51,895 bases of DNA from Fidelibacterota bacterium (GTDB lineage: Bacteria > Fidelibacterota > Marinisomatia > SCGC-AAA003-L08 > GCA-2689995): contig NZIV01000063.1 in assembly GCA_002689995.1 (NCBI GenBank), positions 21,010-72,904 of the forward strand, read 5' to 3'. The notes beneath the pieces are model-generated. The model saw only the letters and a list, made by a program, of their open reading frames with translations. It was not told the origin of the DNA and made no database searches. Made by a program: the position numbers and the translations under genes. Shown here one piece after another: positions 22,874 to 41,325 of this stretch (its first letter is position 1; the number at the start of each line of letters is the position of its first letter).

Positions 22874-24423
22874 TATTTTTTATAAACCAATTCACCATCA
22901 ACAAAAGTCATTAAAATCTCCGTATTTAAAATATCTCTTTCGCTACAAGTCGTTATATCTTGAGATAATATAGTTAGATCAGCATCATATCCTGGCAAAA
23001 TTTTACCTCTTCGATGTTCATCAAATCCACCATATGCAGCCCATGTTGTAAGCATTTTTAATGCTTCTATTCTACTTACTTTTTCTTGTGCCTGCCAACT
23101 TTCAACATTTGGATTATCAGGCGACTTTCGTGTTACTGCAGAAAAAAATTCCAAAATTGGATTTCCTTTTTCAATAGGACAATCAGAACCTCCCGGAATT
23201 TTTAGTCCAGCATTTAAGAAAGATTTCCATCTCGAAATTCTATGAATCCTTTTGTTTCCAATTCTCTGTTCCATCCAACGCATATCACTTGTACAATGTG
23301 AAGGCTGCATTGAAGGTAAAATATCATTTTTAACAAATTGCGGAATCTCTTCATCTCTTACCATTTGAGCATGCTCAACTCTCCATCTTTTATCATTTTT
23401 TCCACAAAGATATTTTTCATATGTATCCAAAACCAGTTTATTACCTTTGTCACCAATTGCATGGGTACAAAGTTGAAATCCATGATTATAACAATTATTC
23501 GCAAGTTTATCAAACTCATCTTTAGATAGTAAAATTAGACCAAAATTTCCACAATCATCATTGTATTCATCAAAAAGACAAGCACCACGACTTCCTAATG
23601 CTCCATCCATAAATGCTTTTACTGCACGAATAGTATAGCGATTATTTTTTAAAATTCCATTTTGGAACCATGGCTTTAGAAACTCTTTGTCGTTTCCATT
23701 TAACATTCCATAGCAGCGAATTGGAAAATTATCTTGTTTTATTAGACTTTGAATAGAGGTAACAATTAATGAATCTTGCCATGCATCATGAATACCAGTA
23801 ATTCCATTAGAGACTGTTTGTTTTATACCTTTTTCAATAAATCGTTTTACATCATTTTCAGTCTGCTTTGGTATATATTTTTCGATAGAATCCATTGCAT
23901 TATCAATAAATATACAATTATTAATAACCTCTCCACCAGCTGTAAAATCTAAACTTTCTTCAAATCCAGAAATTTGTCGTGCTCTTTTATTTACCCAAAT
24001 CGCATGACCATCAATACGTGTCAAAGAAATAGGATGATCAATACTAATATTATCTAAAACCTTTGCCAAAGGAAACTTATTATTTTCCCATAATGACTGA
24101 TCCCAACCTCTACCTAAGATCCAAGTTCCCTTTGGAAAATTTGATAAATTTTTACGAATTAAATTTACTATTTTTTGCGGAGAATCAATTCCTACAAGAT
24201 TAAAATTTTCTAAAAACTTGCCTAAGTTTGAAAGATGATAATGTGCATCAATAAAACCAGGTACAATTGTTGAACCTTTAAGGTCAATAGTTTTTGCAGA
24301 CAATAAATTCTGATTTAAGCCTTCTATTTTTCCATCTTTTATAATTATACTCTCGACTTTAGGCATATCTGGATGCAATGTAATAACATTCGCATTTATT
24401 AATTTTAGAGGTGAAATTTTCAT
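22873..24423 (-). CDS. Amidohydrolase (YtcJ-like, Amidohydro_3)
   Basis: PGFIDAHYH, HAIGD, RVEHAQ and GGSDCP motifs. Confidence 0.92.
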   Translation of the reverse strand: MKISPLKLINANVITLHPDMPKVESIIIKDGKIEGLNQNLLSAKTIDLKGSTIVPGFIDAHYHLSNLGKFLENFNLVGIDSPQKIVNLIRKNLSNFPKGTWILGRGWDQSLWENNKFPLAKVLDNISIDHPISLTRIDGHAIWVNKRARQISGFEESLDFTAGGEVINNCIFIDNAMDSIEKYIPKQTENDVKRFIEKGIKQTVSNGITGIHDAWQDSLIVTSIQSLIKQDNFPIRCYGMLNGNDKEFLKPWFQNGILKNNRYTIRAVKAFMDGALGSRGACLFDEYNDDCGNFGLILLSKDEFDKLANNCYNHGFQLCTHAIGDKGNKLVLDTYEKYLCGKNDKRWRVEHAQMVRDEEIPQFVKNDILPSMQPSHCTSDMRWMEQRIGNKRIHRISRWKSFLNAGLKIPGGSDCPIEKGNPILEFFSAVTRKSPDNPNVESWQAQEKVSRIEALKMLTTWAAYGGFDEHRRGKILPGYDADLTILSQDITTCSERDILNTEILMTFVDGELVYKK

Positions 24424-31462: not shown

Positions 31463-32419
31463 ATGAATTATAGAAAACTTGGAAATTCTGGTTTAAAACT
31501 TAGTGAACTATCATTTGGTTCTTGGGTCACTTTTGGTAATCAAATAGATGTAAATTTAGCATCTGAATTAATTAAAACAGCCTATGATGCAGGAGTTAAT
31601 TTTTTTGATAATGCAGAGGCATATGCAGCTGGAGAGTCAGAAAAGATAATGGGCGATGCTTTAAAAAAACTTAAAATACCTAGAGATACATGGTGTATAT
31701 CTAGTAAAGTATTTTGGGGTGGAAATCTACCCACTCAAATAGGACTAAGTGCCAAGCATATACATGACTGCTGTAATAATGCACTTAAAAGATTAAAAGT
31801 TGAATATTTAGATTTATATTTCTGTCATAGACCAGACCCTGATACACCAATTGAAGAAACTGTTCGAGCTATGAACAACTTGATTAAACAAGGAAAAATT
31901 CTATATTGGGGTACATCTGAATGGTCGGCAAATCAGATTGAAGAAGCATTCAAAATAGCCTCAAATAACTATCTAACACCACCAACCATGGAGCAACCTC
32001 AATATAATTTATTAAATCGTGATAGATTTGAAAATGAATATAAAACTATTTTTGAAAAATATTCAATAGGAACAACTACTTGGTCTCCACTTTGTTCTGG
32101 TATTTTAACTGGAAAGTATAAAAATGGAATCCCAAAAAATGCAAGATTTTCTATCGAATCCTATCAATGGCTTTGGGAAAAATTCAAAGAAGATGGTATA
32201 GAAAATCAATTTACTAAAATTCAAAAGTTTTGTGAAATGGCTAGTAAATTAAATTTAACACCTGCACAACTGGCAATAAAGTGGTGCTTAAATAATTCTA
32301 ACGTAAGCACAGTGATTTTAGGTGCATCAAAGAAATCACAACTAGAAGAAAATCTCAAAATTTATGATTTAAATAGTTCTGATATTGATTTTAGCGAAGT
32401 AGAAATTTGTTTTAATTAG
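31463..32419 (+). CDS. Aldo/keto reductase (Kv-beta-like)
   Basis: MNYRKLGNSGLKLSELSFGSW, FFDNAEAY, DLYFCHRPD and WGTSEW. Confidence 0.93.
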   Translation: MNYRKLGNSGLKLSELSFGSWVTFGNQIDVNLASELIKTAYDAGVNFFDNAEAYAAGESEKIMGDALKKLKIPRDTWCISSKVFWGGNLPTQIGLSAKHIHDCCNNALKRLKVEYLDLYFCHRPDPDTPIEETVRAMNNLIKQGKILYWGTSEWSANQIEEAFKIASNNYLTPPTMEQPQYNLLNRDRFENEYKTIFEKYSIGTTTWSPLCSGILTGKYKNGIPKNARFSIESYQWLWEKFKEDGIENQFTKIQKFCEMASKLNLTPAQLAIKWCLNNSNVSTVILGASKKSQLEENLKIYDLNSSDIDFSEVEICFN

Positions 32420-33425
32420 CCTTTTTAAATTTTTCTAATTGAGTCTGATAATATTCATCTTTCGGATTCAATTCAATTGCACGTTTAATGGTTTTTATAG
32501 CATTTTGAATATCACCAAGCAGCCATTCAACCTCAGCCTGTGTATCTAAAACCATTGGTTTAGAATTATCATCTGCTAATTCGACACCTATCTTTGCTTT
32601 TATCAGAGCATCATCTAAATTTTGTTTTAACTCTGTCATTCTCCAAGCATAACTATTCATAACACTTGAACTTTTAGTAAATTTTTCACTCATTTCAAAT
32701 AAAGTTGAAATTTCTTTGGTTGTATCTTTTTCTACAATATAATATTTTGCTATCATTTGGTATGCAGATATACATAAAGGCGATTCTGAGTAATCCTTAA
32801 TGAAATTTTGTAGACCTGTTATATCGCTATTCTCCCAACCTAATTTTGCCATTGCAAATTTCGCAGATATAATTTCATCCTCCATTTCTTCTGGAGCATT
32901 TTTTAAAAATTGAGTGTAATATTTTTCTGAAATTTCAGACTCACCTCTAGCAGAATATTTTTCACCTAATTTAAAAATTATACTATAATCATTCGGACTT
33001 TCTATTAATTTATTTTCCAACACAGAAATAGTATTTTCACCTTCTAGGATTTCTTTAACCATGGGCAAATATTGATCTGGAGGTGCATAACCTATTATAC
33101 GATCTATTTCATTACCATGATTATCTATAAATACAACTGTAGGAAAAATACGAACTTTATATTGGCTTACAATTTGACTTCCCTCACGTTGTCCAGCATT
33201 AATTTTTATACTATTAAATTTATCAGTGAGAGTTAAAAATGAATTATCTAAAAATGTATCAGCTTCCAGCCGAGCACACCATCCTCAGCTATCGGTATAA
33301 AAGTCTAGCATTATTAACTTGCTGCCTGTAATATTTTTCAAATCTTCTAAACTTCCTTTATACCAAGGATAAGTTGGATTAGTATTACATGCAAAAATAA
33401 ACAAAATAAATATTAGTCTTTTCAA
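32412..33425 (-). CDS. Lipoprotein thioredoxin-fold + TPR protein; predicted selenoprotein (Sec47, UGWC)
   Basis: AGGAG RBS, TTG start, lipobox FIFA-C, then MLDFYTDS-TGA-GWCARLEADTF...FPTVVFID...EIDRIIGY running in frame into the listed 218-aa TPR ORF; 337 aa in total. Confidence 0.88.
33255..33278 (-). promoter_or_regulatory. SECIS-like hairpin
   Basis: TGTG-C-TCGGCT-GGA-AGCTGA-TACA; loop G lies 18 nt after the UGA at 33285-33287; locally GC-rich in an AT-rich genome. Confidence 0.65.
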
Positions 33426-36947: not shown

Positions 36948-38444
36948 ATGAAATTATTTCTTACAATTTTATTTTTTTCACTTTTAATTCCAGCAAGTTC
37001 TTATAATATGGATTTAAAGTCTATAACTATGTATGAAAATAGTCAGTTTAATTATGGTATTTCAGATGTTTGGGGCTATACTGATGAATATGGAAATGAA
37101 TACGCAATTGTAGGTTATCTAAATGGTACTAAAATTTTAGATGTAAGTACCAACCCTAATAACCCCATTGAAGTAATGGATATTCCAGGACCATCAGATA
37201 ATGATTATTATTTTCATAGAGATTATAAAACATTAAATGATGTTCTATATACAGTATGTGAAATGACGGGTGGTGACATGGGCATGCAGGTTATTGATTT
37301 ATCCCCTCTCCCTGAAAATCTACCAATTCAATACCCTACATATAATGAAATTGGAACCTCACATAACTTGTGGGTTGACCCTAATGGATACGCATATATT
37401 GAACATAGTTACGGCGATGCTATAAATATAGCAGATTTATCAGATCCTCTAAATCCAATGGAAGTTGGAAGTTTTGGAAGTATTGGTCCTAATACACATG
37501 ATATTTTTACTCGTAATGGTATTGCTTATGTTTCAAATGGCTGGAGTGAAGATTTTTTAATATGTGATATAAATGATTTTAATAATATCGAAGTGCTTGC
37601 AACAATTTCTGAAGGTGTTTCAGGCTATGCTCATAATGCATGGCTATCTGAAGATAGTAGCCACTTAATAACTACTGAAGAAACCGAAGATCGTACAGTT
37701 AAAATTTGGAACATTGAAAATTTATCTAATATTTCATTGGTAGGTGAATATCTTGCCGAAAATGGATTAGCACATAATGTTCATGTGAAAGGAAGCCTAG
37801 TTTATATTTCACATTATACTACTGGTATACGTATTATTGATATATTTGATCCAACCTATCCTGTAGAAGTTGCAGGCTGGGATACTTATCCGCAAAATGA
37901 TGGTGATGGTTATTATGGTTGTTGGGGAGCTTTTCCGTACACGGAAAATGGATATATATATGCAAGTGATATGCAAAATGGACTTTATGTATTAAGTTTT
38001 GAACCTATCTATGCTGGCTGGATAATTGGAAATATTTTTGATAATACTGGAAATCCACTACCAGATAATGCTGAAATTTTTTCAAATTTAGATGGAAGAA
38101 AATTTTCTATCCAAGAAAATGGATTATATCACATTGGAATGCCAGCTGGTCTGCACTCATTTGATGTATATTTAGGTAATGTAAACTTAGGAGGATTTAA
38201 TGCTAATTTTATTGAACACAATACTATAAATAATAATATTTATCTGACAGGTGAAATTTTGCAAGGTGACCCATCCGGTGATGGACTTATAAATGTATTA
38301 GATATTCTAATGACAATAAATGTTATTACTGGTCAAAATATGTTTAGTGAAATTGAATTTGTATCTGCTGATTTAAATCAAGATAATAATATTAATATTT
38401 TAGATATTGTACTTATTGTTAACATTATACTTGGAAATAATTAG
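36948..38444 (+). CDS. Secreted choice-of-anchor B / LVIVD-repeat protein with C-terminal dockerin-like domain
   Basis: SDVWGY, HRDYKT, HNLW, HDIF, HNAWLSED, HNVHV and WGAFPY motifs; duplicated dockerin-like Ca-binding repeats. Confidence 0.87.
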   Translation: MKLFLTILFFSLLIPASSYNMDLKSITMYENSQFNYGISDVWGYTDEYGNEYAIVGYLNGTKILDVSTNPNNPIEVMDIPGPSDNDYYFHRDYKTLNDVLYTVCEMTGGDMGMQVIDLSPLPENLPIQYPTYNEIGTSHNLWVDPNGYAYIEHSYGDAINIADLSDPLNPMEVGSFGSIGPNTHDIFTRNGIAYVSNGWSEDFLICDINDFNNIEVLATISEGVSGYAHNAWLSEDSSHLITTEETEDRTVKIWNIENLSNISLVGEYLAENGLAHNVHVKGSLVYISHYTTGIRIIDIFDPTYPVEVAGWDTYPQNDGDGYYGCWGAFPYTENGYIYASDMQNGLYVLSFEPIYAGWIIGNIFDNTGNPLPDNAEIFSNLDGRKFSIQENGLYHIGMPAGLHSFDVYLGNVNLGGFNANFIEHNTINNNIYLTGEILQGDPSGDGLINVLDILMTINVITGQNMFSEIEFVSADLNQDNNINILDIVLIVNIILGNN

Positions 38445-39351
38445 TTAATACTGGCTCTACTAGTTTAAATTTAGCTTCATTTATCCAATTAATTTGAACT
38501 CCTCTACGCTCCATTCTTCTAAAAAAAGTCATTTGCCGTTTTGAAAATTGATGAATTGCCGTATTAAGCTTTTGAAACATATCGTTATAATTCAAATCAC
38601 CTTTAAGATATTTTCCAATAAATTTATATTCTAAGCCAAAATATTCTAACCTCTCTTCAGATAGCCCATTGTTTAATAAACTCTTTACCTCATCTATCAT
38701 GCCATTATCAAGTCTCAATTTTAACCGATGAGTAATACTCTTTCTGACTTTCTTTCTATCTGGAGCGATTCCGATTACACAATAATTAAATTTTTGAAAT
38801 TGTCTAATTTCTATTTCTTGTTTTTTTATTTCTTTACTTAATCCTATTTCGATTGCTCTAATTGTCCGTTTTTTTGAAGACAAATCGGTGATATTATGAA
38901 GTTTTAAATTTAAATTTTTTAATATATCAATTAATACTTCATGACTTTCTTTTTCAAGGTTATATCGTAAATAAACGTTAGGTGGAACTTCTGACATATC
39001 ATAATTTAATAAGACTGATTCGATATAAAGTCCTGTGCCACCACATAAAATTGGGAGAGAATAATTTTTTAAAATTTCTTTTTGAGCCCTTCTAAAATCA
39101 TTTTGAAAATGAAAAACACTATAATTTTGCTCTGGCTGTAAAATATCAATTAAATGATATGGAATATGTTTTCCATTTATTTTATATTCTTTCAAATCCT
39201 TACCAGTTCCAATATCCATACCATTATATATTTGCCTAGAATCAGCTGAAATAATTTCCCCTTTATACTTTGCAGCTATTTTAACAGATAAAGATGTTTT
39301 TCCTGAGGCTGTTGGTCCAATAATTACTAAAAGATTTGAGTTTTTATACAT
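38425..39351 (-). CDS. miaA: tRNA dimethylallyltransferase MiaA
   Basis: GPTASGKT, IISADSRQIY...MDIGTGK, GGTGLY and KRQMTFFR. Confidence 0.96.
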   Translation of the reverse strand: MYKNSNLLVIIGPTASGKTSLSVKIAAKYKGEIISADSRQIYNGMDIGTGKDLKEYKINGKHIPYHLIDILQPEQNYSVFHFQNDFRRAQKEILKNYSLPILCGGTGLYIESVLLNYDMSEVPPNVYLRYNLEKESHEVLIDILKNLNLKLHNITDLSSKKRTIRAIEIGLSKEIKKQEIEIRQFQKFNYCVIGIAPDRKKVRKSITHRLKLRLDNGMIDEVKSLLNNGLSEERLEYFGLEYKFIGKYLKGDLNYNDMFQKLNTAIHQFSKRQMTFFRRMERRGVQINWINEAKFKLVEPVLTNYFQV

Positions 39352-39427
39352 AATGATTATTAATTTGTTTATGATATCATTTATTTTCTTGTTTAAATTT
39401 ATGTTATTTTATTAAAAAGGAAAATAA

Positions 39428-40105
39428 ATGAAAAAAATATACTTACATCTGTTTATTTTTATTTTATCTAGTTTCGCTATATCACAATTGGAATATTCTT
39501 TAGAAGATGTTAACACTACTTCTTCAACTTATAATTTAAATGTTTGGTATCCAGAATACTCAGAATTTATTACATTACATTATTTTTCAACGCAAGGTTG
39601 AGCTGGCTGAACAGCTACTTTTGTGCAGTTGCACAATTTTCAAAATGAATTAAGAAATACTGATGGATTTACTAATATCGTCTTTATTGCAGTAGGACAA
39701 ACAAATATTAGTAGTTTTAACGAAAACTTTTGCTCTGATTCAGACCTTCCACTTGTTATGGATCCTTACCCTGAACTTCCTTTGAGAGAAATGTTTAATG
39801 CTGCGCATAAAGAAGTTGTTATTGTAGATTCAGAATCTAATATCCTTGGTAGGATAACTTTAAATGGAAATTTAAATAGCAACGAAAAGGATTATATAAG
39901 AAACATTATTAGTGAAAATTATCCTGGAGATTCTATCATTGGAGATATAAATGGTGATGAGATAATAAATGTTTTAGATGTTATACTTGTAGTTAACATA
40001 GTTTTAGGAGCAATTACTGATTTAGATAGTGCAGATGTAAATCAAGATGGTTTAATCAATGTTCTTGATATAATTAACATTGTTAACATTATAATAAATA
40101 CTTAG
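39428..40105 (+). CDS. Secreted thioredoxin-like (redoxin) protein with dockerin; predicted double selenoprotein (U58-A-G-U61)
   Basis: ATG 39428 and signal peptide, then YSLEDVNTTSST...LHYFSTQG-TGA-GCT-GGC-TGA-TATFVQLHNFQNEL in frame with the listed 160-aa ORF; 225 aa; C-terminal dockerin. Confidence 0.85.
39621..39636 (+). promoter_or_regulatory. SECIS-like hairpin
   Basis: TTGTGC-AGTT-GCACAA. The loop GU lies 18 nt after the second UGA and 27 nt after the first; it resembles the apical stem of the E. coli fdhF SECIS (GUUGCAGGUCUGCAC). Confidence 0.7.
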
Positions 40106-40110
40106 TTTTT

Positions 40111-41175
40111 ATGCGTTTTTTACTTCTAATAATTTTTTTTATATGTATTCCTTTCACTCAAACCCAAGAATGTATAAATATGCCTCTTAATTCGATCATA
40201 AGTACTTATAGCATCGGAGATACTATTAGTATAGATGACCAATTACGACCATATAATGTGTGCTATTCATCTGAAAATAATAGTAATAATACATTTAGGC
40301 TTGCAGATTTTAATGGCAATTTAAATGGAGGCCATTATCGAGTAACTTTAATAAGTATGAATGCATCATGGTGACCGGCATGTTATGGATACATCAGTAT
40401 GATGGATCAAATTCTTGAATTTATAAATATAAACAATCAAATAGAGTTTTTAGTTAGTTTTGATGATGGTACAGGACCTAACTCAACATATACATGCAAT
40501 GAATGGGGTAATTTATATAATGAACTTGGCGAATATGGAAATCAACCAATAATTTTAAATGGTGATGATGACTATAATCAAGATGGAGACCCTGATCATC
40601 ATTTATGGAATTCATTTGCAGGAAATTCTTATTCTGCATACGTAATGTTAGATCATCATATGGTTGTTAGATATTTGTTTGATATTCCAGATTTATATCA
40701 ATTTCAATACAACTACTTAACATCACTCATGAATGCGATGAATGGTTGCACAGAACAATCTGCATGTAATTATAGTCATACTGCTATATACAACGATGGC
40801 ACATGTCAATTTGATCAAGAATGTGATGAAAATTTGAACCCTTGTTCGAACTTTTCATCTCATTTAGATTGTATATCTGAATCAAATTGCTTCTGGATGG
40901 GTGATCATTGTATGGAAGGCTCAAATTGTACAGACCCTATCGCAGAAAACTTCAATCCAATAGCAGAAACAACAGGAATCAATGATAATATAGAGTGTAT
41001 TTACTCTCCTTTTATAGAATTTGGCTGTATTTATCCAAGTGCAGTAAATTTTAATAGTGAAGCTCGTATTGATGATGGAACTTGCCAGTTTAATTATAAT
41101 GATGTGAACGAAGACAATATCGTCGATATTTTAGATATTATTATTATACTTTCTGAAATAATAGAGCTTGAATAA
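40111..41175 (+). CDS. Secreted thioredoxin-like protein with Cys-rich repeats and dockerin-like tail; predicted selenoprotein (Sec88, WUPAC)
   Basis: The listed 87-aa and 258-aa ORFs are in one frame, joined by ISMNASW-TGA-PACYGYISMMDQ. FRLADFNG...VTLISM-x-ASW-U-xx-C is a redoxin active-site context; 354 aa. Confidence 0.88.
40388..40408 (+). promoter_or_regulatory. SECIS-like hairpin
   Basis: GAT-A-CATCA-GTA-TGATG-G-ATC; loop G lies 23 nt after the UGA at 40372-40374. Confidence 0.55.
40744..41085 (+). repeat. Three degenerate GCTDxxAxN(Y/F)...DGxC protein repeats
   Basis: GCTEQSACNYSHTAIYNDGTC, NCTDPIAENFNPIA...C and GCIYPSAVNFNSEARIDDGTC. Confidence 0.7.
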
Positions 41176-41187
41176 AGTTTATCCTAT

Positions 41188-41325
41188 TTATTCCTCAAAA
41201 TTTAATAATTTAACTTCAATATCTAGTCCAACTATATTACCACCTAAACCACCATTATTTTCTATGACTCTATGACAAGGAATTACAATTAGAAGAGGAT
41301 TTATGATTACCTTAAAAATATTCAT
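41188..41325 (-). pseudogene. ogt: Remnant of methylated-DNA--protein-cysteine methyltransferase (Ogt/MGMT)
   Basis: 45-codon ORF MNIFKVIINPLLIVIPCHRVIENNGGLGGNIVGLDIEVKLLNFEE with the PCHRV active-site motif; the N-terminal domain and HTH are missing. Confidence 0.8.

Follow-up and report, generated by a model that had tools for sequence, protein, structure and literature searches.

Can a reading frame that is crossed by two TGA codons, three codons apart, be a genuine gene, and if so, what do the two codons specify? The question is raised by a gene at positions 39428 to 40105 (+) of a 51,895-nucleotide (nt) stretch of DNA (the window), which lies on the largest contig (C34) of the assembly of a Marinimicrobia (SAR406) bacterium. 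Judged from its sequence, this gene very probably encodes an exported redoxin, akin to ResA/TlpA, whose redox pair consists of two selenocysteines (Sec, U), arranged as U-A-G-U; decoding of both UGAs from a single hairpin and a redox cycle are proposed along with it. We take it as a genuine two-Sec gene because the frame and both UGAs are conserved, the UGAs occupy the columns of a CxxC motif, the genome has the Sec machinery and the hairpin covaries. Two-Sec redoxins of the UxxU kind are already known; this one has a dockerin tail, a conserved selenoprotein partner and a covarying hairpin.

The whole UxxU selenoprotein coding sequence encodes 225 amino acids, and its coordinates include the TAG stop at 40103–40105; its extent is drawn from orthologue alignment and codon-position entropy. 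The start ATG (39428–39430) is preceded by an in-frame TAA (39425–39427). A Shine-Dalgarno-like AAGGAA, read from the sequence at 39417–39422 (+), is located 5 nt 5' of the ATG, with its GG (39419–39420) 7 nt 5' of it. The first UGA (UGA1, 39599–39601, +), the putative Sec58, falls in the column of the first cysteine (Cys) of CxxC, and the second UGA (UGA2, 39608–39610, +), the putative Sec61, falls in the column of the second. The read-through protein contains ...HYFSTQG-U-AG-U-TATFVQL... and is made of a signal peptide, a thioredoxin-like domain and a type I dockerin. An earlier reading of the window from its letters alone (the original prediction) had proposed a single frame from the ATG at 39428 through two TGAs into the dockerin frame, and we found the same coordinates and the same peptide. 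Both TGAs appear without listed difference in DNA contigs from three other studies that span the gene, so that the TGAs on which that prediction depended stand at both sites in independent assemblies.

The original prediction also held that standard gene callers split the gene, which is only part of what happens. Genetic code table 11 does break it into 39428–39601 (57 amino acids) and 39623–40105 (160 amino acids, with a GTG start), and pieces of 53 to 57 and 155 to 160 amino acids are found in databases. More often, however, both TGAs are read as tryptophan (Trp, W), these low-G+C contigs having presumably been translated with code 4, and the stored active site is W-x-G-W. Among the best 120 of 430 homologous database clusters, 118 have W at both sites and two are C-terminal fragments; the clusters carry no functional name. 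Since the active site is printed as Trp, or the gene as fragments, in hundreds of public entries, family surveys miss these proteins.

Conservation of the two UGAs was assessed in 74 genomes of the order, in which a redoxin-domain match at E<=1.3e-34 was counted as a close homologue. Close homologues are present at 37 places in 32 of the 74 genomes, and exactly two in-frame TGAs are found in all 37. No Cys or UxxC member occurs among the close homologues of the UxxU clade. The weaker matches listed (50 places) each have one or two in-frame TGAs. When the sample was widened to 401 genomes of the phylum, 52 genomes matched at E<=1e-8, and the two-TGA form was also seen in two families outside the order (two genes). 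The named records with orthologues are metagenome-assembled genomes of Candidatus Neomarinimicrobiota / Marinimicrobia and one single-cell genome.

All 30 distinct sequences have the motif [YF]-F-x-x-Q-[GN]-U-[AGNSV]-G-U-T, and in none of them is either TGA replaced by TGY, down to 44% protein identity. The orthologues are 209 to 227 amino acids long and align end to end; in an alignment of 14 full-length proteins (orthologues 45–65% identical), invariant columns lie on either side of the UGAs. The 36 codons 5' of UGA1 have entropies of 0.65, 0.35 and 1.19 at codon positions 1, 2 and 3, which is coding periodicity. By alignment and codon-position entropy, then, conservation in one and the same frame extends to the segment 5' of the UGAs, a point on which the original prediction had staked its reading. 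The two-UGA frame is conserved beyond chance.

The thioredoxin-fold (redoxin) domain comprises residues 22–156 (39491–39895, +), as delimited by profile matches to NF053656 and to PDB entries. For 14 of 14 members tested, the top-scoring family was NF053656, named 'TUGYCR motif thioredoxin fold (seleno)protein' (best E 6.7e-27), and the two families share an N-terminal ..L-x-D-x-N-x-x-S-x-T.. and a Y-F-x-x-x-x-[U/C]-x-x-C layout. Unlike NF053656, with its T-[U/C]-G-Y-C-R motif, the gene described here has G-U-A-G-U-T (G-U-[AGNSV]-G-U-T in 30 of 30 sequences), its second redox residue is also a predicted Sec, and it has a dockerin tail. A true NF053656 member is present in the same genome (C2:113124–113567, 133 bits) and has one TGA.

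In comparison with the PDB, the domain profile matched thioredoxin 4fyu (E 5.5e-4) and ResA 3c73 (E 2.7e-3), and in the profile alignment the CxxC of both falls on the two U columns. Like ResA, TlpA and StoA, the protein would be an exported thioredoxin-like protein; about 100 residues are aligned, with the U columns on their CxxC. Unlike these proteins, to which the match is weak (E 5.5e-4 to 4e-2), it has both Cys replaced by predicted Sec and no evident cis-proline, and where they have a membrane anchor it has a dockerin tail. A profile of 32 domain sequences was then searched against 1.84 billion representatives, 432 of which matched at E<=1e-3. In the best 150 of the 432, the redox columns are C..C in 62, W..C in 26 and W..W in 4; in the remaining rows both columns are missing (47), the first is a gap and the second C (5), or other residues are found (6). 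W stands for TGA translated with code 4, as shown for the orthologue P0004 (the G007 locus, with U as W) and assumed for the others. Cys is thus found at both UGA columns, and the homologues with Cys agree with the ResA and thioredoxin alignments in placing the UGAs at both Cys positions of a thioredoxin CxxC, as had been predicted.

A quick maximum-likelihood tree of 96 rows was built with the redox columns removed and with a midpoint root only. Rows had to cover at least 115 of 145 columns, and 19 of 29 UxxU sequences were not included. The UxxU sequences formed one clade (support of 100 in the Shimodaira-Hasegawa-like approximate likelihood ratio test) inside a UxxC group (support 90), and most CxxC forms were on the other side of the tree from this UxxU/UxxC group. 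An evolutionary series from CxxC to UxxC to UxxU is clear in these sequences, and by sequence comparison the gene branches off, as a UxxU form, from a known superfamily of thioredoxin-fold (seleno)proteins.

The host assembly (2.9 Mb, 29.5% G+C, contamination 7.3%) contains selA, selB, selC and selD, the machinery that the original prediction presupposed. Over the whole assembly one tRNA-Sec scored above the RF01852 cut-off (65.3 bits). The selA match is 501 bits, selB follows directly after selA, and selD (375 bits) carries an in-frame TGA of its own. Within the order, selA is present in 65 of 74 genomes, including 32 of 32 high-quality ones.

How could two UGAs so close together be recoded? 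A hairpin resembling a Sec insertion sequence (SECIS) is located at 39621–39636 (+), with stem arms 39621–39626 and 39631–39636 and the loop AGUU (39627–39630), as defined by covariation in 30 sequences. It begins 19 nt past UGA1 and 10 nt past UGA2. Pairing is kept in 99.4% of 180 cells (30 distinct sequences, 6 bp), with compensatory changes at three of the six pairs (20 cells), while slid control positions pair in 18–51% of cells. The covariation score was 0.411 versus a shuffled mean of 0.210, and 0 of 500 shuffles scored as high. The residues flanking the loop co-vary and keep the stem (V..H, G..S, W..S, R..S). The loop codons CAG and TTG have zero third-position entropy, despite the A+T-rich genome. 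The bacterial SECIS model, as quoted in PMC13188914, has a loop of 3–9 nt with G in its first two positions, a stem of 4–16 bp, a distance of 16–37 nt from the UGA and a minimum free energy of <= -7.5 kcal/mol. In loop (AGUU), stem (6 bp) and distance (loop 25 nt from UGA1 and 16 nt from UGA2) the hairpin conforms to that model. Another hairpin, which is terminator-like and lies across UGA2 (39601–39616), was considered and rejected; it is not conserved among orthologues.

The spacing was counted with the U of UGA as 1, to the position of the GU of the apex. In the UxxC paralogues the apex GU is at +21 in 11 of 15 hairpins, at +22 in two and at +26 in two; these 15 hairpins were found by a heuristic among 21 paralogues. 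In the UxxU clade the apex GU is at +30 from UGA1 and at +21 from UGA2 in 30 of 30 sequences. Elsewhere in the genome, the loop starts at +21 in selD and at +26 in the gene next to the UxxU gene. UGA1 corresponds by homology to the only UGA that the paralogues have. Given +30 and +21 in the UxxU clade versus +21 in the paralogues, the SECIS appears to have moved 9 nt 3' when the second Sec arose, and 9 nt is the exact distance between the two UGAs. We infer that one SECIS may serve both UGAs, re-registered onto the newer UGA.

The original prediction that the architecture was undescribed is overstated. According to the Global Ocean Sampling (GOS) study, several UxxU sequences occur in the marine peroxiredoxin-like (Prx-like) 2 family, which is mostly UxxC (PMC2398784, Zhang and Gladyshev 2008) and is characterized there as a distant Prx/thioredoxin-like fold with no strong homologue in the then-sequenced genomes (PMC2398784). 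Two reviews list a Prx-like thiol:disulfide oxidoreductase with UxxC/UxxU (PMC9312934, PMC13188914), and NCBIfam has a model, NF053656, for the sister family. The GOS family is marine and has UxxC/UxxU motifs like ours; by description, the two may be the same family. The weak likeness to SelP_N (pfam04592) that is reported for Prx-like 2 was found in 0 of 32 members at E<=10. The GOS and review descriptions of Prx-like proteins mention neither a dockerin (the word occurs 0 times in PMC13188914) nor such a conserved gene pair.

Two further systems invite comparison. SelL, which Shchedrina et al. are said to have described in 2007, is reportedly a UxxU Prx-like selenoprotein of aquatic eukaryotes and a precedent for a diselenide. 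Like SelL, the gene in the window encodes a predicted thioredoxin-fold protein whose CxxC is replaced by UxxU. The SelL-related redox protein family NF040769 scored 12.5 bits (E 0.087) versus a cut-off of 120 bits, and matched one of 14 members at E<=0.01. The SECIS of SelL is of the eukaryotic type, in the 3' untranslated region, whereas the SECIS-like hairpin here is within the coding region, 10 nt past the second UGA. The other system is the UXXU Group 4 [NiFeSe] hydrogenases, for which the authors propose one downstream SECIS for both UGAs (PMC13582414, 2026). In these bacterial genes, too, a distance of three codons separates the two UGAs, but the protein is unrelated and their Sec residues are Ni ligands. 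The hydrogenase paper reports no clear stepwise origin; here, UxxU is nested in UxxC and a shift of the SECIS register can be read.

The signal peptide, recognized by inspection (MKK, a hydrophobic core, A-I-S then Q), covers residues 1 to about 20 (39428–39487, +). The type I dockerin covers residues 172–218 (39941–40081, +), with the two Ca-loop repeats GDINGDEIINVLD and ADVNQDGLINVLD. It matched PF00404 at 28.1 bits (cut-off 22.9) and PDB dockerins at E 6e-6, and both D-x-N-x-D-x-x-x-N-x-x-D loops are seen by inspection. All three predicted parts of the protein are therefore present: the signal peptide by inspection, the thioredoxin-like domain by profiles and the type I dockerin by PF00404 and the PDB. 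About 80 dockerin-like tails occur in the genome (83 whole-protein matches, mostly to the tail alone), together with 75 type IX secretion tails and a SprA homologue; the tails are spread over many contigs (e.g. C79:5416–6186, C7:9602–10309 and C62:1791–2495). In many frames a dockerin match is located about 300 nt 5' of a secretion-tail match; the UxxU protein has the dockerin only, with no secretion tail alongside. The signal peptide and the dockerin/type IX context make export of the UxxU protein likely, and we infer that the dockerin would tether it. In a UxxC paralogue, L053 (G012:C28, Y-U-T-I-C), a type IX-like tail, ..YPNPFNP.. by eye, replaces the dockerin. The limited library that was searched contained no paper linking selenoproteins with dockerins, or Marinimicrobia/SAR406 with dockerins.

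A second predicted selenoprotein gene starts 5 nt downstream of the UxxU gene, at 40111–41175 (+). It encodes a 354-amino-acid-residue secreted protein in which a signal peptide and ..NASW-U-PAC.. are followed by a Cys-rich central part and, at the end, a dockerin-like tail. Its UGA (40372–40374, +; putative Sec88) has no listed difference in the contigs of the three other studies. A putative SECIS, CAUCA-GUA-UGAUG, is located at 40392–40404 (+) and starts 17 nt past this UGA. The hairpin CAUCA-GUN-UGAUG is near-invariant in 19 sequences, at synonymous sites too, with no compensatory pair, and single-sequence folds of the gene are not significant (z = +0.44 and +0.26). Of the 27 loci long enough to contain one, 21 have a W-U-x-x-C gene 723–793 nt past UGA1, and second copies of the UxxU gene have no W-U-x-x-C neighbour. 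The partner protein gave no Pfam or NCBIfam match. In databases it has no informative name ('hypothetical protein' in one source) and appears mostly as fragments. Two database homologues of the partner have a type IX secretion tail (PF18962) in place of the dockerin, and a paralogue of its family, ..MAATW-U-GPC.., is at C33:58127.

A mechanism can be proposed from these features. SelB bound to the single hairpin would deliver Sec-tRNA at both UGAs; after Sec-dependent (secretory) export, the redox pair would alternate between the selenol and diselenide states. The likely redox partner would be the W-U-P-A-C selenoprotein encoded next door, and the C-terminal dockerins would dock both proteins to a cell-envelope scaffold. 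The full picture would be a dockerin-tailed selenoprotein relay in the SAR406 envelope, with a diselenide U-x-G-U redoxin recycled by its W-U-x-x-C partner, and one SECIS that decodes two UGAs (21 and 30 nt away) after being re-registered by 9 nt. We offer this full picture tentatively, as one that has clearly less than an even chance of being right; if it is, SelB of this lineage would tolerate a much wider spacing than the E. coli rule permits.

Other explanations of the locus have to be weighed. TGA might be a sense codon in this organism (Trp as in code 4, or Gly as in code 25), and the protein would then have W-x-x-W. The 118 database homologues stored with W at both sites and the low genome G+C of 29.5% would suit this, but among 1531 long frames TGA is the stop of 249, beside TAG in 223 and TAA in 1059; 1104 of 1648 long frames delimited by TAA/TAG are without any TGA, and TGG is at a normal 11.4 per 1000 codons in the assembly. 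TGA is otherwise an ordinary stop in the host. The sole tRNA with a UCA anticodon is tRNA-Sec, and the tRNA-Trp anticodon is CCA. With Cys at these sites in 62 representatives, and with in-frame TGAs that fall within redox motifs and have hairpins downstream, we regard a sense codon as very improbable. Decay of a redoxin gene by chance stops, or an error of assembly, can be practically dismissed. Table 11 splits the frame, contamination of the assembly is 7.3% and selB is frameshifted, all of which a pseudogene would fit; conservation refutes it, as the same TGAs recur at 37 places (32 genomes), in no fewer than 118 clusters of the databases and in the contigs of three other studies, with coding constraint on either side of the UGAs.

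What the two UGAs specify, and what the protein does with them, could also differ from our reading. One or neither UGA might be read as Sec, with Cys inserted by a tRNA of the tRNA-ReC type or by near-cognate suppression, so that the product would be UxxC, CxxU or CxxC. UGA1 does lie at an unusual 30 nt from the apex, and the hydrogenase paper reports an enrichment of tRNA-ReC in genomes that have UXXU hydrogenases and itself raises this caveat (PMC13582414). However, one tRNA-Sec is over the cut-off here, and no second Sec-like tRNA was found among the nine sub-threshold RF01852 matches: seven are Ser, Leu or Cys tRNAs as called by Aragorn, and the other two (C34:205406–205480 and C67:369–440) are of ordinary tRNA length, their type not assigned. 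Invariant TGAs with no TGY in 30 sequences would be hard to explain were Cys inserted, and we think such insertion improbable. A two-Sec protein might instead bind or carry a metal or metalloid (Hg, Cu, As or Se), with no role as a dithiol/diselenide oxidoreductase. As a matter of general chemistry, a diselenide is expected to be difficult to reduce outside the cytoplasm. In the PDB alignment no cis-proline like that of catalytic thioredoxin folds is evident, and the reviews list a UxxU metal-binding selenoprotein family, NF041115. On the other side, the closest solved relatives are the thiol-disulfide oxidoreductases ResA and StoA, together with thioredoxin and tryparedoxins, and the conserved neighbour is itself of the thioredoxin type with W-U-x-x-C, which would fit a redox relay. 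A metal-binding role is, in our judgement, unlikely, if less far-fetched than a change of code.

A number of observations weigh against the two-Sec redoxin itself. The NF053656 match of the window gene (E 7.7e-22; 77.8 bits with U as C, 63.1 bits in six-frame translation) is below the 100-bit cut-off. Pfam Thioredoxin_8 (18.4–19.6 bits, cut-off 27) and Redoxin (14–15 bits, cut-off 26.6) are under their thresholds, and the lack of an evident cis-proline, which thioredoxin folds usually have, is again to be counted here. The window hairpin alone folds at -6.9 kcal/mol, weaker than the -7.5 of the model; 60-nt folds of G/C-rich orthologues give -7.7 to -16.7. For a 62-nt fold of the UxxU region z is -1.75, a stability reached by 13 of 200 shuffles and not significant by itself. 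Rfam gave only unrelated matches at E>2 around the gene and none at gathering score in the window. UGA1 sits 9 nt farther from the apex than the UGA of the paralogues, a spacing that may not work.

Other points of this kind concern the host. In this assembly selB occupies two frames (C63:22870–24725), with the switch within the A/T-rich 23274–23289; either the assembly is wrong here or the strain has a dead selB. Frames of 624–643 amino acids show selB to be intact in five of five relatives checked, and tRNA-Sec is present in all five. The UxxU gene is absent from both other genomes of the same genus. Metatranscriptome cover of the gene consists of two 151-nt contigs from one dataset, possibly DNA carry-over, and is not counted as evidence of expression. 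For the dockerin, PF00963 (cohesin) gave one match of 26.5 bits (cut-off 24.1), in a 1764-amino-acid frame on C59, and five weaker ones.

If the two-Sec reading holds, the locus is a natural bacterial example of two Sec codons three codons apart with a single small covarying hairpin after them. How SelB and one SECIS would serve two nearby UGAs is a question raised in 2026 for the UXXU hydrogenases too (PMC13582414), and the cassette of about 60 nt is testable. Little work has been done on exported bacterial selenoproteins whose redox motif has two Sec residues. Of 74 genomes from one order of a phylum abundant in the ocean, 32 hold members of the obligate UxxU clade, which is paired with a second, unannotated selenoprotein family. 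Together these predicted proteins point to selenium-dependent chemistry in the SAR406 cell envelope.

The host genome seems, from its sequence, to be rich in selenoproteins, as judged by a heuristic scan and not a census. More likely selenoprotein genes are at C52:53690, C32:65534, C2:113232, C6:49069–49440 and C41:20394–20777; by type they are a DsbA-like protein (FQ-U-PYC), an ArsC-like protein (N-U-GKS) and three UxxC redoxin paralogues. A further UxxU candidate, L-U-N-D-U-M (C34:113068), was rejected, since it appears to lie in the untranslated leader of a gene for a membrane protein. A second UxxU copy (C80:232–891, 58% identical) without the partner gene is on a 7.5-kb contig. One dockerin protein scores identically on C58 and C80, two tmRNA genes are present in the assembly and the G+C content of contig C9 is 35.8%, so that the bin is possibly a mixture of strains or organisms.

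The window has a third likely selenoprotein gene at 32412–33425 (-), which encodes 337 amino acids with a lipoprotein-like signal (..IFAC-N..). Its thioredoxin-like part, ..LDFYTDS-U-GWC-ARLE.., has a TGA at about 33285–33287 and a hairpin loop at +21, and a long helical C-terminal part follows. Downstream of the partner gene, a 45-amino-acid frame at 41188–41325 (-) ends in ..IPCHRVI.., the motif found at the active site of O6-alkylguanine-DNA alkyltransferases; as stops fill the frame upstream, it appears to be what is left of a gene. Two genes upstream of the UxxU gene and on the same strand, 36948–38444 (+) encodes a secreted protein of 498 amino acids that has an LVIVD repeat and ends in a dockerin tail; a minus-strand frame (38425–39351) lies between the two.

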